NCBI GenBank assembly: GCA_046704905.1
Contig: JBJKRA010000018.1
Location: 1-32,000 of the forward strand
Source of the DNA: Candidatus Woesearchaeota archaeon
GTDB taxonomy: Archaea; Nanobdellota; Nanobdellia; Woesearchaeales; JAWAQC01
Reading direction: 5' to 3'
Length of the DNA stretch: 32,000 nt
Shown one piece after another: positions 9,168 through 32,000 of this stretch (position 1 is its first letter; each line of letters begins with the position of its first letter). The position numbers were made by a program, and so were the translations under genes. The notes below the pieces were generated by a model. The model saw only the letters and a program-made list of their open reading frames with translations, did no database searches and was not told the DNA's origin.

Positions 9168-9243
9168 TGGGGAGGTTAGGGGGAGTCGAACCCCCGTCCC
9201 AGGATCCACAGTCCTGAATTCTAACCGTTAAACTACAACCTCC
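9168..9243 (-). tRNA. tRNA-His (anticodon GUG) with genome-encoded G-1 and 3' CCA
   Basis: The manual cloverleaf is G-1/GAGGTTG acceptor, D-arm GTTT-AACGGTTA-GAAT, anticodon stem CAGGA/TCCTG with loop CTGTGGA (anticodon = revcomp of 9207-9209), and T-arm GGGGG-TTCGACT-CCCCC. The acceptor 3' strand is TAACCTC, followed by C73 and CCA. Confidence 0.9.
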
Positions 9244-11723: not shown

Positions 11724-13424
11724 CTACTGCTTCGAGATATCGGGGACCTGCATGACAGGGAAGACCCTGATCTTGTAGACATCGTCTCCGTCAAGCGCCA
11801 GGTAGAGAATCTGCGGCTCTACGGCATCGAGCGGTGAGGGCGCGATGGGGAAGAGGAGACCGCTTCGCGCCTCCGCAAGCCTGCGGTTGAGACTGCGATC
11901 CCTGGAGCGCCTGGTACGGTATTTCCTCTCCAGCGCTTTGATGCTCCTCTCCAGATGGCCGACTATCTCCTCCCGGAGATCCTCTATCATCTGATAGCCT
12001 TCCGGCGTGTACCAACTGTAGCGCAGGCGTCGATAGGCGTCCTCCCGCTTCTCGGAGAGCTTGCCGAGCAGAGCCATCATCTCGGCACCGCTCGCGGAGA
12101 GCTCTTTTTCGTAGGCCGCGATCTGCGCGGTGAGCGTGTTCTTTTCCTTCTCGAGCGTCGTCTTCCCTTTCCGTAAGGCATTGTAGCGACGGACGATAGG
12201 CTTCTTGTTGTAGTTCGTCAGTGCCTTCTTCCGCTGCTCCATCCCGTAGCTCTCCTCGACGAGAGCCCTTGCGATATGTCCGGCGTCGGCGCCGACGGCC
12301 CTTTCCTGCTCCTCCAGGAGGCGCTTCACCTTCCTCTTCTGCCTGTCGTAGGCCTCGAACAGCGTCAGACGTGTCTCCTCCACCTCTGCAAAGCGCTTGT
12401 CCTCCTGGTACTTCCTCAGCCGGTCCTCAATCCCGTCGCGTTTGGTCACGGTCCTGACGAGAGTCTTCTGCAGCCTGTCGTAGGAGAGATGTATCCTGTC
12501 GTAGGCCTCTTTGAGGTTCGTGATATAGCGATCCAGAAGATTGCTGTACCCGTACCTGGCCAGTTCCGAAGGGGTCATCCCCTTTATGGCGCGCAGCTCC
12601 TCGCGAAGGTCCGACAGGTCAGGCGCAGAGGTGGTAACCTCTTTTAGGGGATGGTACTCGAACTGCACGTTGGCCACCCCGTCCTGGTGGAAGCCTGCGA
12701 TGCCGAGCACCGCCACAGGGAAATAGCCTTTCGTCTCTATGAGGTTCTTGATATGGCCCAGCTCCGCATAGTAGGTGTTCCTGGAGATATGCTCAATCGT
12801 GTGGGGCGCATCGATCGTCACCGGCGAGGCCGTGTCCGGATCGAGCCAGAGCGCATCCTTGTCGAAGAGCAGCCCGCCGGTCGCCCCTTTCCTGGCAAGG
12901 TAGGACGATACCATGTCCTCGAGCCCCGGATGCCTCTTCATCTGGAAAGGCTTCATGGAGAGATAGGCGCCGTCGGCGACCATGAGGGGAAGGCCGCTCC
13001 CATGCCGCAGGTCGTCGAGGATCTCGAAGAGAAGCCTGGAATGTGCTATGAGATAGGAGAGGTTGATCGCGCTCGGCTGGCTCGGAGCGAACGAGGAGTC
13101 CACAGAAGCGGTGGACTTCATATCCATGGGCATGGCGACCAGCGCCTCACCCGTATGCTGGACAAGTATCAGGTCGGGGATGGCCACCCACCGGTCATGG
13201 CCGTCGGCAAGGCCCTCCGCGGAGAAGATACGGCCGTACCTGTCCCTGAGCATGTCTACAGGGATGATGGTCGTGCCCTTCCCCTCACCCTCGTGGGAAA
13301 GGATGACGAAGTCCTCCGCACCGTAGAATATGGGATAGAGGGACGAGACGCCTGCTTCGAAGAGCGCTTTCACATGATCCTTCTCGGAGCCTCTTATCTT
13401 CGCCTCGGGCCCGAGCATGCTCAT
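11724..13424 (-). CDS. Hypothetical 566-aa protein: N-terminal globular region with a possible PD-(D/E)xK motif, plus a long Arg/Lys/Glu-rich coiled-coil C-terminal half
   Basis: The start is set at MSMLGPE (ATG 13424), which forms an ATGA overlap with the upstream DHH gene stop (13421-13424). The candidate motif is WVAIPDLILVQ...ALVAMPMDMKS. The C-terminal roughly 230 aa are heptad-like and charged. Confidence 0.65.
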   Translation of the reverse strand: MSMLGPEAKIRGSEKDHVKALFEAGVSSLYPIFYGAEDFVILSHEGEGKGTTIIPVDMLRDRYGRIFSAEGLADGHDRWVAIPDLILVQHTGEALVAMPMDMKSTASVDSSFAPSQPSAINLSYLIAHSRLLFEILDDLRHGSGLPLMVADGAYLSMKPFQMKRHPGLEDMVSSYLARKGATGGLLFDKDALWLDPDTASPVTIDAPHTIEHISRNTYYAELGHIKNLIETKGYFPVAVLGIAGFHQDGVANVQFEYHPLKEVTTSAPDLSDLREELRAIKGMTPSELARYGYSNLLDRYITNLKEAYDRIHLSYDRLQKTLVRTVTKRDGIEDRLRKYQEDKRFAEVEETRLTLFEAYDRQKRKVKRLLEEQERAVGADAGHIARALVEESYGMEQRKKALTNYNKKPIVRRYNALRKGKTTLEKEKNTLTAQIAAYEKELSASGAEMMALLGKLSEKREDAYRRLRYSWYTPEGYQMIEDLREEIVGHLERSIKALERKYRTRRSRDRSLNRRLAEARSGLLFPIAPSPLDAVEPQILYLALDGDDVYKIRVFPVMQVPDISKQ

Positions 13425-15403
13425 CGGTGCACCAGCTCCCGGTCGAATTCGTACTCCTTGACAGCGTCGAAGAACTCGGGTACCATGTCCTCCTCGAGAT
13501 AGCACGACGACGCCGTCGGATGTCCGCCGCCGCTCTCCACGATGCCGGCCTCTTTCATGTCTGAAAAGAACTCCCCGAGATGTATGCTCTCGCCGTAGGC
13601 GAGGTTGGCCCTTCCCGATATCTTCCTCTGATGGCCATAGGCAGGGGCGCCGGTGAAGAGGATGCCGTGGCGTCCGGGGAGCATGCCGACGTTCGCGACG
13701 ATGCCGCCGAAGACGCCGGTGAAGGGGAGGATGCTCGGGACCTTGAGCTCATCGGCGAGCGTGTCGAGCGGGAGGTAATGCATCGTCTTCGTGATATGAC
13801 GCATCATGCCCTTGTCGAAGATCATCTCCTCGACCATGCCCATGCCCTGAGAGATCGTATGCCGGTATTCGAGATGGATCTCCTTGAGCCGGGAGAAGAT
13901 GTCCTCACGATCCTGCCACTTGCCGAAACCCTCTTTTTCAAGCGCGGCGATCTCTGTCCTGGTCAAGGGGAGATCGAGATCAAGCGCGACCGCCGCGTTG
14001 AACAACGGGCCATGGCCGAGCTTGGATGTCGAGGTCATGAGGTTCGCGATCTCGGCTATCGAGAGGCCGGAAAAGACCCTCGACCCCTCCCATGCGATCA
14101 CGTACTGGCCCTTATGCAGCTGCGATAGGTAGCTTTCCCTGAATACAGGCTCGGAGAATGCGACGACGCTATTGACGTACTTGGCGAGAAGCCTGCCTCT
14201 CTGGTCGTCGGTGAGCTCGCTCATCCGGCTGTCCGGGTCGATGCCGATCGAACGGAGGAAGATGTTGGCCTTGGCCGTGCGGTCGCTTCCGCGGTGGTAA
14301 TCGTCGGTATAGTCGTCGAACACGACAGGCATGACGCCGCCGTCAGGATCGGTGAGGTAGCGGCCATCCCTGCTGTCCATAATGAGCGTCCTGTCGAGCG
14401 CGTCCTGGCTGACGGCGTTGAGCTTTCCGACCTCGTCTCCGGTGAGGTAGTCGAGATACTGCTGGTTCGTACCGGCCTTGTTGCCCGGGCCGACGGCAAG
14501 GAGGAACTTGAGCTGGCGGTAGTGCTTGTCGAGCCAACCGGAGATATTCTTTTCGTACACTCCGCCGAGCGCCTTCGCCGCTTCGGGGAAGGTCGGCGGC
14601 CGGTACTTGAGGTTGAAGGGGATGTCGCTCTCCGCCACTGCCTTCTGCAGGGGCTTTAAGAAATAGCCGTAGAGGGGACTGTCGACCCAAGAGATCATGT
14701 GCTTACGTTCGAGGTAATGGTAGAGCGCGGCGTTCGCTCCGGCGACGGACTGCTGGTCTGCCGCAGAGCCCGCGATGCCGATGACCGTCGAGTAGGTGAG
14801 GCGCTCCTCGAGACGCTTACGCTGCTTCTCGGTCGAGGGGTCGCCGGCATACATCTTGAGCAGCCTATCGCCGACAGCGTTGAAGAGGAAGGCGGTCGCA
14901 GCGCCAGCCGAGAGCTCTTTCCCCCCGTCGATGCCATGCGCGTTCGGGTTGAGATAGAAGACGCCGGAAGGCGAAGGGCGCGGCTGATGATGGTCCAGCA
15001 CGACGGTGCCTTCCGGATACAGTCCGGGAAGGTCCATGGGATCGAGGCTTCCGAGGTCGGAAAAGAGGAAATGCCCTTCCCCCCCTTCCGAAAGACGTGC
15101 GTGGATGCTCTCCAGGCTGGCCTTCGCGCCAGGATCGGTCTCTATGCCCATGACGCGCTCGGAGTCCACTTTTACGCCGTTGTTCCCGACCATGTCCGCG
15201 AGGGAGCGCATGCCGATGGTCGCGCCCGTCTCGCCGGAAAGGCCGTCGGCGTCGGCGAGATGGGAGACGGCAAAGAAGTATCGCTCAGGCCCATAGTTGA
15301 AGAGGATCTCCAGGAGGCGGTCCGCAACAGCATCTTGCAGAACATTGTACTCGTCATAGCCCTCCCCTTCGGGAAGCGGTGTGTCTATGCCCTTTCCTCC
15401 CAT
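13421..15403 (-). CDS. DHH/DHHA1-family phosphoesterase (RecJ/Cdc45-like) with a large central insertion
   Basis: The DHH motifs are SHLADADGLSG (DxD), FSDLGS, VLDHHQP (DHH) and the DHHA1 GGGHPTASS. At 660 aa it is longer than typical family members. Confidence 0.75.
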   Translation of the reverse strand: MGGKGIDTPLPEGEGYDEYNVLQDAVADRLLEILFNYGPERYFFAVSHLADADGLSGETGATIGMRSLADMVGNNGVKVDSERVMGIETDPGAKASLESIHARLSEGGEGHFLFSDLGSLDPMDLPGLYPEGTVVLDHHQPRPSPSGVFYLNPNAHGIDGGKELSAGAATAFLFNAVGDRLLKMYAGDPSTEKQRKRLEERLTYSTVIGIAGSAADQQSVAGANAALYHYLERKHMISWVDSPLYGYFLKPLQKAVAESDIPFNLKYRPPTFPEAAKALGGVYEKNISGWLDKHYRQLKFLLAVGPGNKAGTNQQYLDYLTGDEVGKLNAVSQDALDRTLIMDSRDGRYLTDPDGGVMPVVFDDYTDDYHRGSDRTAKANIFLRSIGIDPDSRMSELTDDQRGRLLAKYVNSVVAFSEPVFRESYLSQLHKGQYVIAWEGSRVFSGLSIAEIANLMTSTSKLGHGPLFNAAVALDLDLPLTRTEIAALEKEGFGKWQDREDIFSRLKEIHLEYRHTISQGMGMVEEMIFDKGMMRHITKTMHYLPLDTLADELKVPSILPFTGVFGGIVANVGMLPGRHGILFTGAPAYGHQRKISGRANLAYGESIHLGEFFSDMKEAGIVESGGGHPTASSCYLEEDMVPEFFDAVKEYEFDRELVHR

Positions 15404-23646: not shown

Positions 23647-24774
23647 CTATGCAGCGCGCGGCGAAAGCTTCCCCTTCTTTACCGCGAGCCACACGGCGGA
23701 CCAAATCATGGAATCGTCCGCGATGTAGAAGGGTCCGCGGAAGGGCGACATGTCCGGATAGTAGACCTCGAGGAAATTCCTGTAGCGGGTGATGACGGCC
23801 TCGTACTTGGCCATCTCCTCGTCGAGCAATGCCTTGTCGTAGCCGAGGAGCACCTCGATCCACATCATGCCCAGGTGCGCCCAGAGCACGTCCCTCTCAT
23901 AGTCCATGTTGACGAGCTCGACCATGATCATGGCGTGGTCGACCTTTCTGCGTGCGGTGTAGCGGAGGGCCAGGGGATAGTTTAGCCCTTCACGGTCGAG
24001 GGCGGTACGCACCCGGTCGAAGACGGCCCTGTCCGTGACAAGTCCGGTCCAGAAGGGGGTGACCTGCGCGTCGCCCGCGATATGCGTGGCCCCTGAGCGG
24101 TCGTCTAGGAAGTAGCCGTCCGGATGGAAGTAATGCTCCATGATGAGCTTTCGGAAATCGTATGCCGCAAGAGGCGTCGCGAGACCCAGGGCCTTCCCGT
24201 GCCTCTGCACGAGGTAGGCCATGCAAAGATCGTAGGAGGCGCCCTTTCGCTTCGCATAGTCCTTCATGGAGGAGAAGTGGCGGTCCGTCCTGACAAGGCC
24301 CGTGTCCTCCTCTATGACGTTCTCGGCGAAATAGGCTATCTCCTTGTCGAGAAGGTCGCGATGCTGCGCGACGAGCGCGCTGTCGCCGAGCTCGGAGAGG
24401 CTGTAGAGCAGGTAGCCCAGGGAGTCGGGCGCATAGATGGGGAAGTCGAAAGGCCGGCCCTTTGGGGTGATCGTCGTGGTGATGCGGCCTGCCCGGCTGA
24501 AGCGCTCCAGGGCGTAGGACAGGGTCTTTCTCACCTCCTCCTTATGGCCGAGAGCGATGAGGGCGCGCACCACCCAGGCGAAATCGCGGACATAGAACTG
24601 GCGGAAATGGCCGGAGCTGACCATGTAGAACCCTTCCTCCCGGTTCCAGCAGGCGTCGAGAATCTGTGAGACAACTTCTTCGGCCGTCCCCGGATAGGCC
24701 GGCAGGCCGCGCCTGAGGACATGCAGCCTGCGCCGAAGGATCCGTAGCGCCTCCCCTGCCAGCACGAGGTCCAT
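23647..24774 (-). CDS. Putative (alpha/alpha)6-barrel glycoside-hydrolase-like protein (weak assignment)
   Basis: The 375-aa helical repeat pattern and FYVRDFAWVVRALIALG resemble GH15/GH63/debranching-type barrels. The start is set at MDLVLAGEAL (ATG 24774), because the track ORF's first 50 aa translate the AT-rich promoter region. Confidence 0.5.
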   Translation of the reverse strand: MDLVLAGEALRILRRRLHVLRRGLPAYPGTAEEVVSQILDACWNREEGFYMVSSGHFRQFYVRDFAWVVRALIALGHKEEVRKTLSYALERFSRAGRITTTITPKGRPFDFPIYAPDSLGYLLYSLSELGDSALVAQHRDLLDKEIAYFAENVIEEDTGLVRTDRHFSSMKDYAKRKGASYDLCMAYLVQRHGKALGLATPLAAYDFRKLIMEHYFHPDGYFLDDRSGATHIAGDAQVTPFWTGLVTDRAVFDRVRTALDREGLNYPLALRYTARRKVDHAMIMVELVNMDYERDVLWAHLGMMWIEVLLGYDKALLDEEMAKYEAVITRYRNFLEVYYPDMSPFRGPFYIADDSMIWSAVWLAVKKGKLSPRAA

Positions 24775-24796
24775 TGCGGTCTTGCGATGCCCTGTC

Positions 24797-24807
24797 CTAT
24801 AAAAAGG
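24797..24807 (-). promoter_or_regulatory. TATA box for the minus-strand GH-like gene (CCTTTTTATAG)
   Basis: Its centre lies about 28 nt upstream of ATG 24774, which suggests a leaderless mRNA. Confidence 0.35.
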
Positions 24808-24840
24808 TTCTGAAGCGGGGATTCTTGGAAAGGGAGGAAT

Positions 24841-24904
24841 GCCAAAAAGAAAAATATATAAATAGATAGTATCAGAAAAAGATATATTAGTATAAGATTT
24901 ATAG
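24841..24904 (+). promoter_or_regulatory. 64-nt strongly AT-rich block with several TATA-like elements upstream of surface-protein gene A; the proximal box is AAGATTTATAG (24894-24904)
   Basis: The sequence is gccaaaaagaaaaatatataaatagatagtatcagaaaaagatatattagtataagatttatag. The proximal TATA ends about 26 nt before ATG 24930. Confidence 0.4.
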
Positions 24905-24929
24905 AGACCGAAGGCTTGAGGCATACACC

Positions 24930-26147
24930 ATGAAAAAGAAAGGCCAGGAAACAGGAAGTTCTGCTGCGATACTTTTGGCGCTCCTCGGGCTGTTCGTGCT
25001 CCTCTACCTCCTCTTCGTGCCTCCCGGCGTGCGGGAGAGCCTCCTCAACGGGAACATCACCTATGCGAACGAGACCACGACGTACAAGGCCTCCTACGTC
25101 CTCCTGATGGACGAACGCCCCGGACTCCTCAACTACATCAACCTGCCCATCTGCCAGAACAAGGAGTGCGACCACGACCTGCCATCGTTCTCGCTGCTGC
25201 GCACGACTGCGTCGCAGCAGATAGCCTCGTTCAACCCCTTCATTGTCAAGAACAACATCTTCACCAAGGAGGACAAGACCCTCACCTTCTCGGTGAACGA
25301 CCTCCAGGACACGAGCAACCTCCTGCTGACGTTCGGCGCGAACGAGCATTCCGGGACGCTGACGGTCATGCTCAACGGGCACGACATCTACCAGAAGGCG
25401 ATGGACACCTACAACGTCGAGCCCATCACGATCCCAAAGACCATCCTCGCGATGACGAACACCCTGACCTTCTCCGTATCGGGTGTGGGCGCGCAGTTCT
25501 GGAAGACGAACGCCTACGGCATCGAGAACGCCAAGATCGTCGGGGACGTGACGGACACGACCAAGCAGCAGAGCGCGACAACGTTCTTCATCTCGAGCGA
25601 CGAGATCGATGCCATGCAGAGCGCGGACCTACGGTTCTTCCCCGACTGCAAGGCCTCGCAGGTCGGACCGCTGTCCATCACCCTCAACGCGAGAAGCATC
25701 TACCAGGGGGTGCCTGACTGCGGCATGATCAACGTCGTGCAGCTCTCGAACAACGCGCTCGCTACAGGGGACAACAGCCTATCGTTCCAGACCGCATCCG
25801 GCACATACCTCATCGACAGCATCAGCGTGCAGACGCACCTCAAGGACATCAACTATCCTGTCTACTACTTCGACCTCTCTGACCAGCAGTACCAGGACCT
25901 CATGCAGAACAGGACGGACCTCAACCTCACGCTCGATTTCGCGAAACGGCTCAACCAGTCCTATGACGTCTTCTACAACCTCAACGGCTACAAGCGCTCG
26001 GTGCAGGTGGACCAGGGCATCAGCGAGGTGCAGAGCAAGCTCCTCAACGTCGCCCTGAAGAAGAAGAACAACTGGATCTCCTTCGAGCCGGACGGGCAGC
26101 CTGTCACGATCGCAGAGATGAAGATAGAGATCAAGCCGCGCGGTTGA
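24930..26147 (+). CDS. Surface protein A: N-terminal anchor or signal (MKKKGQETGSS plus a hydrophobic helix) followed by three tandem beta-rich repeats of about 90 aa
   Basis: Track ORF of 405 aa. The repeats lie at about aa 117-206, 217-302 and 311-401 and share F.(V/I/L)S..., L.(V/I).LN(G/A)..(I)Y and a terminal (I/V).(V/I) pattern. There are 4 Cys and 5 N-x-S/T sequons. Confidence 0.8.
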   Translation: MKKKGQETGSSAAILLALLGLFVLLYLLFVPPGVRESLLNGNITYANETTTYKASYVLLMDERPGLLNYINLPICQNKECDHDLPSFSLLRTTASQQIASFNPFIVKNNIFTKEDKTLTFSVNDLQDTSNLLLTFGANEHSGTLTVMLNGHDIYQKAMDTYNVEPITIPKTILAMTNTLTFSVSGVGAQFWKTNAYGIENAKIVGDVTDTTKQQSATTFFISSDEIDAMQSADLRFFPDCKASQVGPLSITLNARSIYQGVPDCGMINVVQLSNNALATGDNSLSFQTASGTYLIDSISVQTHLKDINYPVYYFDLSDQQYQDLMQNRTDLNLTLDFAKRLNQSYDVFYNLNGYKRSVQVDQGISEVQSKLLNVALKKKNNWISFEPDGQPVTIAEMKIEIKPRG

Positions 26148-26172
26148 ACCGCTCCCGGGAAGTGCACCAGCG

Positions 26173-27555
26173 ATGGGAATCAAGGACAAGCTTAGCATGG
26201 CAAAGGCCGCTTTCTCGGCGTACACGGGCAACATAGGCGGCGCGCTGAAGGGAGTGGTCGATGCCGTCAAGAACAAGGGGGGCGGTTCAGGCACCACGAC
26301 CGTCGTGAGCGCGCCTGCGCCGCCAGCCGCTCCCGCGTACCGCCCGGCAGCTGCCCCGCCGCCTCCGGACTACTCGCGCTTCCTCAAGAAGAGCGGGAGC
26401 AGCATCGGCAAGCTCATCCTCATCCTCGTTTTCGTGGCGTTCTTCCTCACGCTGAGCCTGCCCTATATCTACTCGGCGAACTTCGTCCCGCCGAAGCTCC
26501 TCAGCAGCATCACGATAGGCTTCCAGGGCTTCTTCGCGAACTTCGGGCAGTGGTGGACCACGTTCAACCCTGCGAAGAGCTGGAGCGATTTCCTCAACAA
26601 GCAGACCGCATACGCGACAGGCGGCTACTACGAGGGCCAGGTCGACCAGAAGAAGGCAGGCCCTGACCTCGGCGTGACCATCACACAGTTCAAGGCGCAG
26701 CGGGCGACCTTCACCGAAAAAGAGCCCGTCGCGCTTTGGGCGGACATCCAGGCGAGGGCTCTCGGCTTCGACCAGTACGACCAGCAGCTCTCGCTCACCG
26801 CCTGGTGCGAGTACAGGGATCCTATCACTGGAAAGACCGTCAAGACCAAGGTCAACAGCTACCAGATATACCAGTACGGCGAGGAGTACGTCGACTGCTC
26901 GTTCGGCAACATGACCCAGGGCGCATACACCGTGAAGGCGGACGCGGAGTTCGATTTCTCCACGCACTCCTACCTCAAGACCTACTTCATGGACGCGTCG
27001 CGCCTCCAGATATACCGCATGCAGAACAAGGACCCCCTCACCGAGTTCGACGTGACCGACCCGAGCCCCGTCTCCGTATACACGAACGGCCCGGTGGCCG
27101 TCTCGATCGGCACGAACGAGAACCTGCCGCTCCCGGTGCCTTCGGGCAAGGGCTTCTCCAGCATCTTCGGCGTGACGATAGAGAACCAGAACCCGAACAA
27201 CGGCATCATCATGCAGATCAAGTCGGTCCAGTTCCAGCTGCCCGAGGCGCTATCGTTCGACCCGGACCACTGCGATTTCGTCCCAGGGACCCCCACCACT
27301 GTGACGGACAGCGTCTCCGGCGAACGCTACAACGTCTATACCATCACGCCGGACGGCAAGAAGATCACCACGCAGACCTTCTCCGACATCGACCGGTTCA
27401 TCACGCTCAACTGCCGGCTCGACGTGGACGATTCGAGCCTCCTCCTCGGCAATTCCCCCTTCGCCACCAAATACCTGCGCGCGAGCGTGGACTACGACTA
27501 CCTGCTGACCAAGCAGGCGACCGTCATCGTGCAAAAGGCACAGAGCCTGACATGA
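26173..27555 (+). CDS. Surface protein B: bitopic membrane protein with a cytoplasmic amphipathic and Pro/Ala-rich N-tail, one TM helix, and an extracellular domain distantly paralogous to C/D/E
   Basis: Track ORF of 460 aa. It contains APAPPAAPAYRPAAAPPPPDY and a TM helix IGKLILILVFVAFFLTLSLPYIY. Motifs shared with C/D/E are NGPVAVSIG, FGVTIENQNPNNGII, ITLNCRL and SVDYDYLL...ATVIV. Its stop overlaps the gene C start (ATGA 27552-27555). Confidence 0.8.
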   Translation: MGIKDKLSMAKAAFSAYTGNIGGALKGVVDAVKNKGGGSGTTTVVSAPAPPAAPAYRPAAAPPPPDYSRFLKKSGSSIGKLILILVFVAFFLTLSLPYIYSANFVPPKLLSSITIGFQGFFANFGQWWTTFNPAKSWSDFLNKQTAYATGGYYEGQVDQKKAGPDLGVTITQFKAQRATFTEKEPVALWADIQARALGFDQYDQQLSLTAWCEYRDPITGKTVKTKVNSYQIYQYGEEYVDCSFGNMTQGAYTVKADAEFDFSTHSYLKTYFMDASRLQIYRMQNKDPLTEFDVTDPSPVSVYTNGPVAVSIGTNENLPLPVPSGKGFSSIFGVTIENQNPNNGIIMQIKSVQFQLPEALSFDPDHCDFVPGTPTTVTDSVSGERYNVYTITPDGKKITTQTFSDIDRFITLNCRLDVDDSSLLLGNSPFATKYLRASVDYDYLLTKQATVIVQKAQSLT

Positions 27556-28475
27556 AAGCCGCAGCATTACTCCCCCTCATCGCAGCGCTCCTCCTCATCA
27601 GCGGCTGCGCCGGCGTCATGGGACCTGGCCAGCAGCCGAGCTACAACCCTTACCAGGGGACAGTCGGGCTGTCGATGTCCTTCGTGCCCAACGCCCCGCC
27701 GGACCAGGTCTACGAGCAGGAACAGGCGCCGATCGGCGTCCAGATTGAGAACGACGGTGCCGACGACATCCAGGGCGGCATCGTCAAGGTCATCACGGAG
27801 AACGACATCTTCAAGGCGCAGAAGACCGAGGCGGTCTTCGACCTCAAGGGCAGGAACCTCTACTCCCAGCAGGGTGAGCAGAAGGTGCTCATGTTCCCTG
27901 CGCAGGCAGGGGACCTCAAGGATTTCACCTCCATGGACACGAACATCATCGCCACGGCCTGCTACCGCTACGCGACGCACTACAGCTCCGAAGTCTGCAT
28001 CGACCCCTACCCGTTCGACCAGACCATGGCGAAACCCTGCACCAGCGCCACCCTCACCTCGACAGGGAGCGGCGCCCCTGTCGCCGTGACGAAGGTCGAC
28101 CCGAGGATGTCTCCGCAGCAGAACGGCTTCGGCGAGCAGGTGATGGTTCCCCAGTTCATCGTGACCATCCAGCAGGTCTCGGACGGCGAGGTGGTCAATC
28201 CGGACACCTGCACGCAGTCCACCATCAGCAGGACGGACTACGGCACGGTCTACATAAGCGGGGAGCTCGGCAACGTCCCGCTCCAGTGCACCCCGAACCC
28301 CGTCATCCTCAACCAGGACCCGACGGCCGTGGACCAGGGGACGATCACCCGATGCACCTATCAGGGGGAGATCAAGCAGGCGGAAGGCGTCCACAACTCC
28401 CTGCTCAACCTCAACCTCCAGTACGGCTTTTCCCAGAGGATCGCGAAATCCATCAAAATACTTACCACACAATAA
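27552..28475 (+). CDS. Lipobox lipoprotein C (paralog family, 6 conserved Cys)
   Basis: The true start is MKAAALLPLIAALLLISGC (lipobox LISGC). The upstream part of track ORF 26736..28475 is an out-of-frame overlap of gene B. Motifs include ACYRYATHYSSEVCIDPYP, KPCT, SGAPVAVTKV and LNLQYGF. Confidence 0.85.
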   Translation: MKAAALLPLIAALLLISGCAGVMGPGQQPSYNPYQGTVGLSMSFVPNAPPDQVYEQEQAPIGVQIENDGADDIQGGIVKVITENDIFKAQKTEAVFDLKGRNLYSQQGEQKVLMFPAQAGDLKDFTSMDTNIIATACYRYATHYSSEVCIDPYPFDQTMAKPCTSATLTSTGSGAPVAVTKVDPRMSPQQNGFGEQVMVPQFIVTIQQVSDGEVVNPDTCTQSTISRTDYGTVYISGELGNVPLQCTPNPVILNQDPTAVDQGTITRCTYQGEIKQAEGVHNSLLNLNLQYGFSQRIAKSIKILTTQ

Positions 28476-28502
28476 TGGCAGCAGAAACGCCGAAAAAAAG
28501 AA

Positions 28503-28513
28503 AGATTTATAAT
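28503..28513 (+). promoter_or_regulatory. TATA-like box (AGATTTATAAT) in the C-D intergenic gap, followed by an AAGGAG SD at 28540-28545
   Basis: It has the same AAGATTTATA core as the boxes upstream of gene A and rps8e, and lies 43 nt upstream of ATG 28556. Confidence 0.3.
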
Positions 28514-28555
28514 GCACTCTCTCCCAAAGCACCCCCTATAAGGAGCATGCTACCC

Positions 28556-29503
28556 ATGAAGAAGCTGGTTTTCCTCCTGGTCGCGGCCCTGCTGATCGCA
28601 GGATGCACGCAAGGCCCTAGCAAGCAGCCTGCGAACCTCAACTACATGTCGGGCAGCCAGGGGCTGGTCATGGAGCTGGCGAACGGGATGCCCCCTGCCT
28701 ACATCTACAACGGGGACAGGCTGAGCATCGGACTGACGCTCACGAACGCCGGCACGAGCCAGCTGACGGACGGCTATCTCTACATCGCAGGGTATGACCC
28801 GAGCATCATCGACCCCAACGGCAACACGGCCACAGGAAGCCTACCGCTGCCGCAGCCAGGGACCTACTGGCATTTCACCATACCCCAGCACCGCACGCAG
28901 TACGACAACGTGGGCGGACAGGTCTTCCAACAGTTCCAATCCAACTACATCACCCTCCCGCCGAACACGCCGAGCTATCTCGTCCCCCTGACCATCTACG
29001 CCTGCTACGTCTATGAGACGCACGCGACGGCCACCGTCTGCTTCGATCCCTACCCGCACAACACCGAGATGGACAAGCCCTGCATCACGCAGGACGTGGG
29101 CCTCGGCTCGCAGGGCGCCCCGATCGCCGTGACCAACGTGGCCGTGAGCAACAACGGCGGCCAGACGGTACGGATGATCTTCACCATCCAGAACGTGGGC
29201 GGAGGCGTGGTCTTCAACCTCAACGACATGCAGGACTGCCCCTCGAACATCGGGCCCGACGTTCGCGACACGGTCACGCTCTCCTCAGTCTCACTGGTCG
29301 GCAACGGCGCCGGCCAGATATCATGCAGCTATCCGACCGGCAACTCCGGCAACATACGCCTCGGCCCAGGAGAGACAGGGACCATCGTCTGCGAGGCGCC
29401 CATCGCCCGCGCAGCCGCGGCATACCAGAGGACCGTGCAGATAGACCTCACTTACGGCTACGCCCAATACATCAAGCAGACGGTCGAGATACGTTCAACA
29501 TGA
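28556..29503 (+). CDS. Lipobox lipoprotein D (paralog family, 6 conserved Cys)
   Basis: The start is MKKLVFLLVAALLIAGC (lipobox LIAGC), with the SD GGAG 10 nt upstream. The track ORF's N-terminal 90 aa are an artefact. Motifs include ACYVYETHATATVCFDPYP, KPCITQ, QGAPIAVTNV, FTIQNVGGG and DLTYGY. Confidence 0.85.
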   Translation: MKKLVFLLVAALLIAGCTQGPSKQPANLNYMSGSQGLVMELANGMPPAYIYNGDRLSIGLTLTNAGTSQLTDGYLYIAGYDPSIIDPNGNTATGSLPLPQPGTYWHFTIPQHRTQYDNVGGQVFQQFQSNYITLPPNTPSYLVPLTIYACYVYETHATATVCFDPYPHNTEMDKPCITQDVGLGSQGAPIAVTNVAVSNNGGQTVRMIFTIQNVGGGVVFNLNDMQDCPSNIGPDVRDTVTLSSVSLVGNGAGQISCSYPTGNSGNIRLGPGETGTIVCEAPIARAAAAYQRTVQIDLTYGYAQYIKQTVEIRST

Positions 29504-29522
29504 AAACCAGGAAGGTGATACC

Positions 29523-30452
29523 ATGAGAAAGACCTTTGTCTTACTGCTCGTGCTCTCGCTCGCGTTCATCGCAGGCTGCAGCAACAACACAAAGCAGCCG
29601 AGCACCACGCCCTACGTGGGCGGGACCACAGGCCTGCAGCTGAGCTTCGCGTCTGGCGCCCCGCCAGCGAGCATCTACGATGGCGGCGGCTTCCCGTTCG
29701 ACATCGACGTCAAGCTGCAGAACATGGGCGAGTTCACGATACCCAAGGACAACGTGACCCTCCGCCTCAAGGGCATCTACGCAGAGGACTACGGCAAGAC
29801 CGCGGCCGACCTGATAAAGCAGCCGAACGACGATCTCGTCGGCGTCAGGAAGGACGTGACCGGCAGGGTCTTCAACGGTATCCAGACGGATGTGGACTTC
29901 GGCGAGTTCAACTACCAGGGGAACATCTCCGGTGCCATGAGCAGCGTCGTGATCCTCGCGCAGGCGTGCTATTGGTACCAGACCACCGCCACGGCGGATA
30001 TCTGCGTCAGGACGAAGCTCAACGACCCGACCAGCGGCGTCTGCACCGTAGACGAGACCAAGCCCGTCTACAACTCCGGCGCGCCGATCCACGTGCAGAA
30101 CTTCCAGGAGACCGCCGTGTCGCAGAGCAAACTGCAGTTCACGTTCGACATCACGCACCTGGGCAACGGCAAATTCTTCATGCCCGGGGACCAGACGTGC
30201 AACGAGACGTACCAGGACCAGAACAAGGTCCGTGTGCTCGTCGACACCGGCTTCAGCGACGTAACCTGCACGGGTCTCAACGGCAACTCAGGGATCGTGA
30301 ACGTGCCTGAGGGGACCACGACCATGCGCTGCATCGTCACGGTGCCTGCGGACAAGGTCGGCGACTACCAGAAGGCGGTCACCATCAAGCTGGACTACGA
30401 CTACGAGGACAGCGTGGACACGACGATCAACCTCAAGCATGCCGGCCAGTAG
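29523..30452 (+). CDS. Lipobox lipoprotein E (paralog family, 6 conserved Cys)
   Basis: MRKTFVLLLVLSLAFIAGC carries lipobox FIAGC, and the SD AGGAAGGTGAT lies upstream. Motifs include ACYWYQTTATADICV, GVCTV, SGAPIHVQNF, FTFDITHLGNG and KLDYDY. There are 4 N-x-S/T sequons. Confidence 0.85.
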   Translation: MRKTFVLLLVLSLAFIAGCSNNTKQPSTTPYVGGTTGLQLSFASGAPPASIYDGGGFPFDIDVKLQNMGEFTIPKDNVTLRLKGIYAEDYGKTAADLIKQPNDDLVGVRKDVTGRVFNGIQTDVDFGEFNYQGNISGAMSSVVILAQACYWYQTTATADICVRTKLNDPTSGVCTVDETKPVYNSGAPIHVQNFQETAVSQSKLQFTFDITHLGNGKFFMPGDQTCNETYQDQNKVRVLVDTGFSDVTCTGLNGNSGIVNVPEGTTTMRCIVTVPADKVGDYQKAVTIKLDYDYEDSVDTTINLKHAGQ

Positions 30453-30470: not shown

Positions 30471-30986
30471 TCACTTTTTCTTCCTTATCTCCCTGAGAAG
30501 TGAACTTATGGTCTTTCCAGCGACCTTGCCCTTGAACCGTTCCATGGCCCTGCCCATGAGCGCGCCGATCGGGGCGTCTGGATCCTCTGACACGATGGCC
30601 TCAAGCGCCTTCCTTATCTCCTTCCCGTCGATCGGGCGATGGGCGGAGAGGTCGGCAGAGCCTGTCCTCCCCTGCTCCACAAGGATGTCCCGCGCAGCCT
30701 CCTCGAGGACCTCTCCCCTGTCGATCGCAGGGAGCAGCGTGGCCTCGATGTAAGCCGTGTCTACCTCGACGCCCTCCTTCCTGCGGATGTCCTTCGGGAG
30801 GACGAAGAGGGCCGTCGCGAGGAAAGAGAGGTGGATGTTCGGGAAGCGCCTGACGAGCCCGTCCAGATCGTAGGAAGAGCGCGCGAAAAAGGTCGCGTAC
30901 TCCTCGTTGATGCCGTACTGCTTCCGGTAACGAGCGATCCTCTCGTCGATGCGCTCGGGGACGGTGATGTGGGATAGGTCGGGCAC
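30471..30986 (-). CDS. gatE: GatE C-terminal portion (helical plus YqeY-like tail domains), separated from the upstream gatE ORF only by one in-frame TAA
   Basis: The tail IGALMGRAMERFKGKVAGKTISSLLRE matches the GatB/YqeY tail pattern. It is in the same frame as 31011..32000. The only candidate restart is GTG at 30984-30986. Confidence 0.7.
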   Translation of the reverse strand: MPDLSHITVPERIDERIARYRKQYGINEEYATFFARSSYDLDGLVRRFPNIHLSFLATALFVLPKDIRRKEGVEVDTAYIEATLLPAIDRGEVLEEAARDILVEQGRTGSADLSAHRPIDGKEIRKALEAIVSEDPDAPIGALMGRAMERFKGKVAGKTISSLLREIRKKK

Positions 30987-31010: not shown

Positions 31011-32000
31011 TTACATGCGAGCGGCACCAGGCATGGGACGAAGGTAGCTCGAAGAGCCGTCTGGGTTCGCGTTCCTGACCTCCTTCTCGAGCGACGTACG
31101 GGCGGCATGGGCGATGACCTCCCGGAGCGCATCCTCCGCACGCATCCTCTCGTCTGCGATGAGCACGAAGGCATCGTCATTTCCCGCCTTGAGCATCCTC
31201 TCTACGGCGGCGACCTCGTCTGCCGTTATGCCGTAGGCGGGAAGCTCGTCGGTATGGAACATGCCATGGACACCTCTCGTCTTCGCATGATCGGAGAGCT
31301 CCGAGCCGTAGCGCCTGCCCTCCTGCACGGCCTTGCCGAGGAGGCCGCGGTAGCCGGGGAGCCTGATCGCGAGGACCCTGCCGTCGGCCTTTCCCAGGGC
31401 GGCTGCGACGACCTTTGAGGACGTGCTCCTGAACGCCGACGAGACGTCGATTATCGCATGATCGGGGGAGAGCTTCCTCTCCATGATCGTACGGTGTATG
31501 CCGAGCAGATTCTGCTGGCGCAGGATCTCGTTGTCGACGATGGAGGGGATCATGCGCAGATCCTGCACACCCTTGATCTCGACGCGCACGCCCCCCTTTA
31601 TCGAGACGTTGAGATCCTGGCGGATCGTGCCGAGGCCACGCTTGACCTTCCCGGTGCTGCGCAGCACCATGCCGATGCGCTCGGCGACCTCCTTCGCCCC
31701 GGATGCTGTCACGATGTCGGGACCGGTCGCGATCTCGATGAGCGGTATGCCGAGACGCGAGAGGTTGTAGGTATTCTGCGTGCTCTCCCTCTCGACGATC
31801 TTGGCGGAGTCCTCCTCTATGCAGACGGTCTGGATGCTGACGCCGTCAAGACTGCCGCCGGTCGCGACGAGCGCGGTCCGCTGGAAGCCTGACGTGTTCG
31901 AGCCGTCTATGACGGTCTTACGCATCACCTGCACCTGGTCGACCACCGTCGCCCCAAGCATCCTGGCCACCTGCAGGACGACTGCGAGCGCGTCCGTGTC
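31011..32000 (-). CDS. gatE: Glu-tRNA(Gln) amidotransferase subunit E, core portion (5'-partial: the N-terminus lies beyond the right edge); ends at an in-frame TAA at 31011-31013
   Basis: MRKTVIDGSNTSGFQRT, GIPLIEIATGPDI, GLGTIRQDLNVSI, HTDELPAYGIT and YLRPMPGAARM are present. The reading frame stays open to position 32000. Confidence 0.85.
   Translation of the reverse strand, partial: DTDALAVVLQVARMLGATVVDQVQVMRKTVIDGSNTSGFQRTALVATGGSLDGVSIQTVCIEEDSAKIVERESTQNTYNLSRLGIPLIEIATGPDIVTASGAKEVAERIGMVLRSTGKVKRGLGTIRQDLNVSIKGGVRVEIKGVQDLRMIPSIVDNEILRQQNLLGIHRTIMERKLSPDHAIIDVSSAFRSTSSKVVAAALGKADGRVLAIRLPGYRGLLGKAVQEGRRYGSELSDHAKTRGVHGMFHTDELPAYGITADEVAAVERMLKAGNDDAFVLIADERMRAEDALREVIAHAARTSLEKEVRNANPDGSSSYLRPMPGAARM

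Follow-up and report, generated by a model that had tools for sequence, protein, structure and literature searches.

To our knowledge, most DPANN archaea have yet to be cultured, and neither their hosts nor, for the most part, the molecules through which they contact those hosts have been identified. For Pacearchaeota and Woesearchaeota with small genomes, large extracellular lytic-transglycosylase proteins have been described, and binding to the wall of a bacterial host has been proposed for them, according to the available portion of that article (Castelle et al. 2021, PMC8204110). AliA, which is important for the lipidation of archaeal lipoproteins, has been reported from DPANN archaea in general (Hong et al. 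2025, PMC12462473). Here we analyze a 32,000-nucleotide (nt) stretch of the genome of a Candidatus Woesearchaeota archaeon (assembly GCA_046704905.1, contig JBJKRA010000018.1, positions 1 to 32,000 of the forward strand; hereafter, the window), with the focus on five adjacent genes, denoted A to E. We infer, with a probability of roughly one half, that the products of these genes assemble into an extracellular complex, tethered to the membrane, by which the envelope of a partner cell is bound and, in some lineages, cut.

Conservation of the gene order among relatives, which the preliminary description of this locus had named as a check, was found to be strong. A scan for related loci, in which each GTDB species was represented by one genome and an alignment of D orthologs served as the query, yielded at least 137 relatives; 80 loci were retrieved, and the open reading frames (ORFs) of 87 loci were classified with phmmer. 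The arrangement A-B-C-D-E on one strand is present in 58 of the 87 loci, and most of the remaining patterns (BCDE, ABCD, CDE, and DE) are compatible with truncation at contig ends. The loci that contain the cluster belong to genomes of Woesearchaeota, Nanoarchaeia and Aenigmatarchaeota, and, as far as sampled, the operon is restricted to DPANN lineages. Each of the five window proteins finds its best match in the respective protein, A, B, C, D or E, of one related locus (L001). The median spacing between B and C is -4 nt over the 58 loci, and this conserved overlap suggests conserved translational coupling.

In 35 of 52 loci, the gene for Pelota is found upstream of the cluster at a distance of no more than 600 bp, and in 45 of 56 loci the cluster is followed, within 2.5 kb, by the gene for the RFC small subunit. 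Given this stable place between Pelota and RFC, the operon is a vertically inherited part of the chromosomal core and not a mobile element. In the window, both neighbors are replaced by other genes. The taxonomic labels of some loci call for comment. One locus labeled 'Candidatus Binatia bacterium' (L055, DATILO010000022.1) contains an archaeal B-C-D-E array and is probably mis-binned, and dozens of loci with the prefix CA, labeled 'uncultured Methanosarcinales', share a cluster of the Woesearchaeota/Nanoarchaeia type, so that these labels look like placeholders.

Protein B consists of a Pro/Ala-rich N-terminal tail, a single transmembrane helix (residues 81-99, nt 26413-26469) preceded by basic residues, and, on the extracellular side, a conserved core about 320-326 amino acids long (roughly residues 140-460), in which C212 and C242 are invariant and C367 is nearly so. 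The basic residues ahead of the helix suggest an N-in, C-out orientation, with the Pro/Ala-rich tail in the cytoplasm. A word-indexed homolog search with B returned only B itself; the 68 orthologs analyzed here were obtained via synteny, and those in L001 and L002 match window B with E-values of about 1e-28. At least three transmembrane helices are predicted ahead of the core in 64 of the 68 orthologs, most often five and mostly four to seven. This membrane region is poorly conserved, matches no family, and is reduced to one helix in window B. When the B profile was compared with the PDB, the matches were limited to hydrophobic membrane regions, including a match to a transporter in the N-terminal part (E-value 1.2e-3), and were read as compositional.

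Several B orthologs carry additional domains, all of which are located C-terminal to the core, that is, at the membrane-distal end (Table 1). Three classes of peptidoglycan hydrolases, SLT, 3D and NlpC/P60, occupy the same position of B in different genomes. These archaea are not known to produce murein, and contact between the tip of B and a bacterial cell wall is the parsimonious interpretation. No SLT (PF01464) or other hydrolase domain was detected in window B in the Pfam scan and, judging from these domain matches, SLT is a lineage-specific add-on and not a feature of window B. The preliminary description stated that the cluster encodes no ATPase, enzyme or transporter; this is correct for the window, but the lack of an enzyme does not extend to the family, given the hydrolases on B orthologs. 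The predicted peptidoglycan-hydrolase fusions lend indirect support to the earlier idea of a role in adhesion or cell contact.

Protein A has a short basic N-terminus with a conserved [KR][GAS]Q motif, followed by a hydrophobic signal-anchor helix (residues 12-30, nt 24963-25019). A word-indexed search returned 66 homologs, all unnamed or 'hypothetical' and all from metagenome-assembled genomes (MAGs) of Woesearchaeota and Nanoarchaeota; the nearest ortholog, 55% identical, comes from a Woesearchaeota MAG (GCA_038894115.1). In the AlphaFold2 model built from a 49-sequence alignment (predicted local distance difference test score, pLDDT, of 90), the N-terminal helix is followed by three beta domains that resemble galactose-binding-domain-like jelly-rolls. 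The alignment contains three repeats of the LNG and G-x-N-x-L-x-F motifs, which we take to be typical of such jelly-rolls, and C240 and C264 are invariant. A Foldseek search with the model retrieved reelin, beta-sandwich domains of GH35 and GH2 enzymes, BcsB and PNGase F, with a probability of 1.0 and template-modeling (TM) scores of at most 0.26. No hidden Markov model (HMM) of Pfam matched the A family above its curated cut-off; weak, sub-threshold matches to BetaGal_ABD2 or Glyco_hydro_2_N2 were obtained for one or two of the 49 members. According to the model, A is a signal-anchored protein with three lectin-like domains, and by analogy with related folds it may bind sugars. Long variants of A (550-590 amino acids; P0041, P0043, P0046, P0048, P0055, P0057, P0059, P0060, P0064, P0066, P0067 and others) contain a Cys-rich insert of about 160 amino acids after the second jelly-roll, with the pattern CDE..DxDCC.. 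and many conserved Cys, which does not match any Pfam family.

The N-termini of C, D and E consist of an n-region, an h-region and a lipobox of the form [LVIF][ASTVI][GAS]C. Of the C, D and E orthologs, 60 of 62, 63 of 72 and 68 of 73, respectively, have a lipobox-like motif, and D gives a weak match to LPAM_1 of Pfam. By these features, all three qualify as lipobox lipoproteins, and their lipidation is predicted. Across the C/D/E family, the lipobox Cys and five other Cys are invariant and a sixth is nearly so, a pattern that would fit three disulfides in an extracellular protein. The AlphaFold2 model of D (24-sequence alignment; pLDDT 87) has the form of an all-beta sandwich, in which two strands, 140-163 and 290-313, are each 24 residues long. 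Foldseek comparison of this model with the PDB produced generic matches to immunoglobulin (Ig)-like, integrin alpha leg, alpha-2-macroglobulin MG and transglutaminase-barrel domains, with TM-scores of at most 0.26, and comparison with a library of viral structures yielded nothing specific. The preliminary description had suggested CARDB/Ig-like beta-sandwiches for B through E. The all-beta model of D and its generic Ig-like matches agree with the beta-sandwich part of this suggestion; for CARDB itself there was no HMM match at E-values up to 1.

The C/D/E family is large. A profile HMM scan recovered 3,260 clusters at 50% identity (1,535 at E-values of 1e-30 or lower), nearly all of them 300-330 amino acids long, and ten long variants scanned for fused domains contained none. 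By word-indexed search, D has 23 homologs, unnamed or 'hypothetical', in MAGs of Woesearchaeota, Nanoarchaeota and Aenigmarchaeota; the E ortholog L1_E is 36% identical to window E (E-value 3e-66).

The five proteins had been considered mutually paralogous. The relationship is clear for C, D and E, which are 25-28% identical over their full length in pairwise BLASTP comparisons (E-values 1e-10 to 4e-21) and yield E-values of 4e-65, 1e-33 and 1e-36 in profile-profile comparisons. These three genes descend from a single gene for a Cys-rich, all-beta lipoprotein that was triplicated long ago, and the one-to-one orthology across genomes implies that the triplication is older than the split of these lineages. 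B is only a probable distant relative. In hhalign comparisons of the B ectodomain with C and E, the alignments are consistently colinear and have scores of 30-40 (P 2e-4 to 4e-3, probability 9-47%), whereas column-shuffled and reversed controls score just 11-17. In these alignments, the B strand A-x-F-x-F-x-T-x-AY is aligned to taCYxYxT of C, GPV-x-IG of B comes to lie next to GAPVAVT, and the N-x-G strand aligns as well, as does the YxY strand at the C-terminus. On this sequence evidence, the B ectodomain is probably homologous to C, D and E. A is unrelated: neither BLASTP nor profile-profile comparison revealed a relationship between A and any of B through E.

The failure of the preliminary description to assign the five products to any recognizable family was confirmed by database searches, in which A-E had no curated match in Pfam, NCBIfam, PHROGs or PADLOC. 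The sole PHROGs match was the lipoprotein signal peptide of D, and PADLOC gave no match. PDB sequence-profile searches with the A and C/D/E family profiles returned no match, and Foldseek identified no specific structural neighbor of the A and D models. In Pfam and NCBIfam, none of the five proteins matches an S-layer family HMM or a solute-binding protein family. No prior description of the five-gene operon was found in the literature; the nearest is the account of SLT proteins by Castelle et al. (2021), as far as the available portion of that article goes. A, the B core and C/D/E appear to represent three new, mutually unrelated protein families in an undescribed, fixed five-part arrangement. 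The building blocks (beta-sandwiches, jelly-rolls, lipoboxes and transmembrane anchors) are ordinary, and the novelty lies in the families and in their arrangement.

In the complex proposed here, B, with an ectodomain that is probably of the C/D/E fold, and the three lipoproteins would make up a hetero-oligomeric structure, a platform or a stalk, on the outside of the membrane, and A would serve as the glycan-binding arm of the assembly. The assembly would engage a partner or host cell by its envelope and, in lineages in which B carries SLT, 3D or NlpC/P60, would also open a bacterial wall locally, an opening that would serve the attachment and exchange needed by reduced-genome episymbionts. 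Several points weigh against this proposal. Window B lacks a hydrolase, and only about 10% of the examined B orthologs have one, which excludes wall cutting as the core function. The homology of B to C/D/E is weak (probability at most 47%), and the structural matches of A and D are generic (TM-scores of at most 0.26), so that sugar binding by A is just an analogy. Near-universal conservation and a fixed site among housekeeping genes fit a structural envelope role equally well.

A more far-reaching version of the proposal, which we put forward tentatively, is that A-E are the core attachment and envelope-breaching apparatus, an unrecognized five-component surface machine, of DPANN of the Woesearchaeota, Pacearchaeota and Aenigmatarchaeota types. 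If this were true, the machine, whose B subunit would have acquired different peptidoglycan hydrolases in separate genomes, would mark the lineages that parasitize bacteria and not archaea, and would explain how they do so. The operon, with its outward-facing products, is an easily recognized and testable candidate for the DPANN contact machinery, and hydrolase-bearing B could be used as a genomic marker for possible bacterial hosts. Furthermore, the three superfamilies, A, B-core and C/D/E, so far have no representation in Pfam, NCBIfam or the PDB.

Other explanations of the operon have to be considered alongside a partner-binding complex. A-E could be a structural part of the envelope, either a coat resembling a surface layer (S-layer) or the anchor or spacer of such a coat, with host contact being incidental. 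This is the main alternative, though we consider it doubtful. A widespread core operon in a fixed chromosomal position, placed behind the strongest AT-rich promoter block of the window, is what might be expected of a coat. All-beta Ig-like domains combined with a lipid anchor resemble known archaeal S-layer proteins, and a chain of the Deinococcus HPI S-layer (8cka_B) is among the weak Foldseek matches of the D model (E-value 1.8e-3). However, no S-layer family HMM match was obtained, the proteins are small (about 300 amino acids), N-glycosylation sequons occur at chance level, with none in C and D, and hydrolase add-ons on B would have no obvious use in the self-coat of a murein-free organism. 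The same add-ons, together with the fold of A, which is like that of carbohydrate-binding modules, and the four to seven transmembrane helices of most B orthologs, could point to scavenging of glycans or cell walls, whereby A would bind polysaccharide, B would hold the complex in the membrane, in most lineages by its polytopic domain, and would at times depolymerize the bound material, and C, D and E would be capture lipoproteins that feed a transporter. This appears distinctly improbable: no transporter, ATPase or permease signature was found in the cluster, either in the window or in the loci whose gene lists were read, the membrane region of B is poorly conserved, with one helix in the window, and C/D/E are all-beta, as judged from the D model, unlike known solute-binding proteins, which have an alpha/beta fold.

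A relationship to type IV pili, in which A would be pilin-like, with [KR][GA] followed by Q as its class III signal peptide, and B-E would be accessory proteins, is very improbable. Ahead of the hydrophobic helix, 86 of 99 A sequences do contain the conserved motif [KR][GAS][QENAT], but in most of them the hydrophobic core begins 1-7 residues past the motif and not directly, and A carries about 370 amino acids of globular domains. When the pattern was restricted to the FlaFind type ([KRDE][GA][ALIFQMVED][ILMVTAS]x3 directly before the hydrophobic helix), it was found in 7 of the 99 sequences, and there was no match to the Class_IIIsignal or archaeal pilin families of Pfam at E-values up to 1; A was accordingly rejected as a type IV pilin. 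An assembly ATPase, a platform protein or a prepilin peptidase was not found in the window cluster, and none was called beside the cluster in L001-L006, the loci whose gene lists were read. Derivation from a virus or a mobile element, for instance as a remnant with envelope or fusogen genes, is barely credible. The D model was checked against viral structures as described above, and weak Foldseek matches to envelope proteins of white spot syndrome virus were recorded (for example, 7dda, with a TM-score of 0.53 when normalized to the 122-residue target). The stable Pelota-RFC context in many genomes led us to reject such an origin, as did the PHROGs match, which is a lipoprotein signal peptide alone; in the gene calls of L001-L006, no integrase or other mobile-element gene adjoins the cluster, and the cluster is similar to the rest of the window in guanine-plus-cytosine (GC) content.

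The layout of the locus is as originally described: the ORF calls place the five consecutive plus-strand genes at 24930-30452 and reproduce the reported junctions, 25 nt between A and B, a 4-nt overlap between B and C, in which the start codon of C overlaps the stop codon of B (ATGA), 80 nt between C and D, and 19 nt between D and E (Table 1). The D-E spacer contains the Shine-Dalgarno-like motif GGAAGGTGA that had been reported there. All five products had been predicted to be exported or membrane-anchored, and as predictions these assignments hold, with a signal anchor in A, a transmembrane helix in B and lipoboxes in C, D and E.

Table 1. Genes and regulatory regions of the A-E cluster in the window and domains added to B in orthologous loci
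Feature	Position	Strand	Length	Remarks
Gene A	24930-26147	+	405 aa	ORF call
Gene B	26173-27555	+	460 aa	ORF call
Gene C	27552-28475	+	307 aa	Predicted lipoprotein with lipobox LISGC; Cys19 at nt 27606-27608
Gene D	28556-29503	+	315 aa	Predicted lipoprotein with lipobox LIAGC; Cys17 at nt 28604-28606
Gene E	29523-30452	+	309 aa	Predicted lipoprotein with lipobox FIAGC; Cys19 at nt 29577-29579
Predicted promoter region of A	24841..24929	+		AT-rich; common to the divergent upstream gene
C-D spacer	28476..28555	+	80 nt	TATA-like TTTATAA at about 28506-28512
SLT on B ortholog, L005/L006	residues 740-844			40.1 bits (Pfam cut-off 21.3)
SLT on B ortholog, L080	residues 469-588			22.5 bits (Pfam cut-off 21.3)
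SLT on B orthologs, L082, L085, L086				Sub-threshold, <21.3 bits
3D on B ortholog, L003/L004	residues 833-862			26 bits (Pfam cut-off 23.8)
NlpC/P60 on B ortholog, L078	residues 627-724			23.6 bits (Pfam cut-off 23)
fn3-like on B orthologs, several loci				Sub-threshold

As the preliminary description had noted, A is preceded by the most AT-rich block of the window (24841-24940, GC 0.28, measured over 100-nt stretches). A TATA-like element, TTTATAG, lies at about 24898-24904, 26-32 nt upstream of the ATG of A, and the region 24841..24929 may act as the promoter of the operon. A sigma-70-like site is not present upstream of A, nor is one expected. The separate TATA-like box previously seen in the C-D spacer is also present; the stretch 28446-28545, which overlaps this spacer, ranks third in AT content among the 100-nt stretches of the window, and the spacer could be an internal promoter. 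The GC content within the cluster is similar to that of the rest of the window, which is about 60% overall, a high value for Woesearchaeota-type DPANN genomes. Minus-strand ORFs overlapping the cluster (such as 27567-28532) were treated as by-products of this composition and set aside because homologs and synteny back the plus-strand genes.

A link to N-glycosylation, proposed from sequons in A and E and from adjacent glycan-handling genes, was not upheld. N-x-S/T sequons are found at chance level, with 5 in A against 4.9 expected, 4 in E against 2.7 expected, and none in C and D. GT4, AglB/STT3 and GT2 genes are indeed located upstream of the cluster in the window, but the gene described as 'GH-like' has no Pfam or PDB sequence match, and no such glycan-gene neighborhood was recognized in the other loci studied: in L001-L006, the calls beside the cluster include no glycan gene. 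The first approximately 50 codons of the 'GH-like' ORF (23647-24924, minus strand) run through the AT-rich promoter of A; its true start is probably Met51 (at about 24774), which gives a 375-amino-acid protein.

The archaeal, DPANN-type nature of the organism to which the window belongs is supported by an archaeal RNase P RNA and by the nearest ortholog of A, which is from a Woesearchaeota MAG. The RNase P RNA (159 bits) is located at 2354-2674 on the plus strand, and a tRNA-His (GTG) at 9168-9242 on the minus strand; both confirm an archaeal origin. The AglB/STT3, GatE-type and TruD genes of the window are likewise archaeal in character. GatE is apparently split, with GatB_N and GAD in one of the two minus-strand ORFs 30471-30986 and 31011-31970, and a weak GatB_Yqey tail in a separate 171-amino-acid ORF, 24 nt downstream of the GatB_N/GAD ORF; a genuine split, a frameshift and an assembly error are all conceivable causes. 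Two further minus-strand ORFs, 13421-15403 (660 amino acids) and 11724-13505 (593 amino acids), overlap by about 85 nt and have no Pfam match. The former contains a GGGHP motif, as in DHH/DHHA1 phosphoesterases, and much of the latter consists of charged, coiled-coil-like sequence. In a collection of 15 billion proteins, the proteins of the window itself are singletons.

The systems closest to A-E each share one element with the cluster. The accessory jelly-rolls of GH35 and GH2 enzymes and the carbohydrate-binding jelly-rolls of BcsB have the fold that the model and Foldseek assign to the three domains of A. In contrast to GH35 and GH2, A has no catalytic domain. With BcsB, the likeness is at the fold level alone: A has no Pfam BcsB match and no cellulose synthase partner, and no GT2 gene was found next to the cluster in L001-L006. 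In addition, A is anchored by an N-terminal helix, unlike BcsB, in which the anchor helix is C-terminal. Specialized peptidoglycan hydrolases are associated with trans-envelope machines, as exemplified by VirB1 of type IV secretion systems and FlgJ of flagella. By analogy, hydrolase-bearing B would attach a wall-cutting domain to an envelope assembly of several proteins, presumably so that lysis is local and not bulk; there is no homology to secretion-system components, and the wall to be cut would be that of another cell, since these archaea are not known to make murein. Compared with the solute-binding lipoproteins of ABC-type systems, the D model is all-beta, no solute-binding protein family is matched, and transporter genes are missing from the cluster. 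With the AliA-dependent thioether-archaeol lipoproteins (PMC12462473), C, D and E share the n- and h-regions and the lipobox, as predicted from their N-termini, but their mature domains do not belong to any of the described lipoprotein families. The nearest counterpart in the same lineages is fam00969, among the lineage-specific families of 'Module 98', an exported SLT protein for which binding or degradation of the bacterial host wall has been proposed, according to the available portion of the article (PMC8204110). The long B orthologs of L005/L006, L080 and L082 fit a protein of the fam00969 type by its description there. The two differ, as far as that portion goes, in that SLT is here an optional C-terminal add-on to the B core, missing from window B, and in that Castelle et al. 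(PMC8204110) describe a single protein family and no operon, whereas B is one of five syntenic genes.

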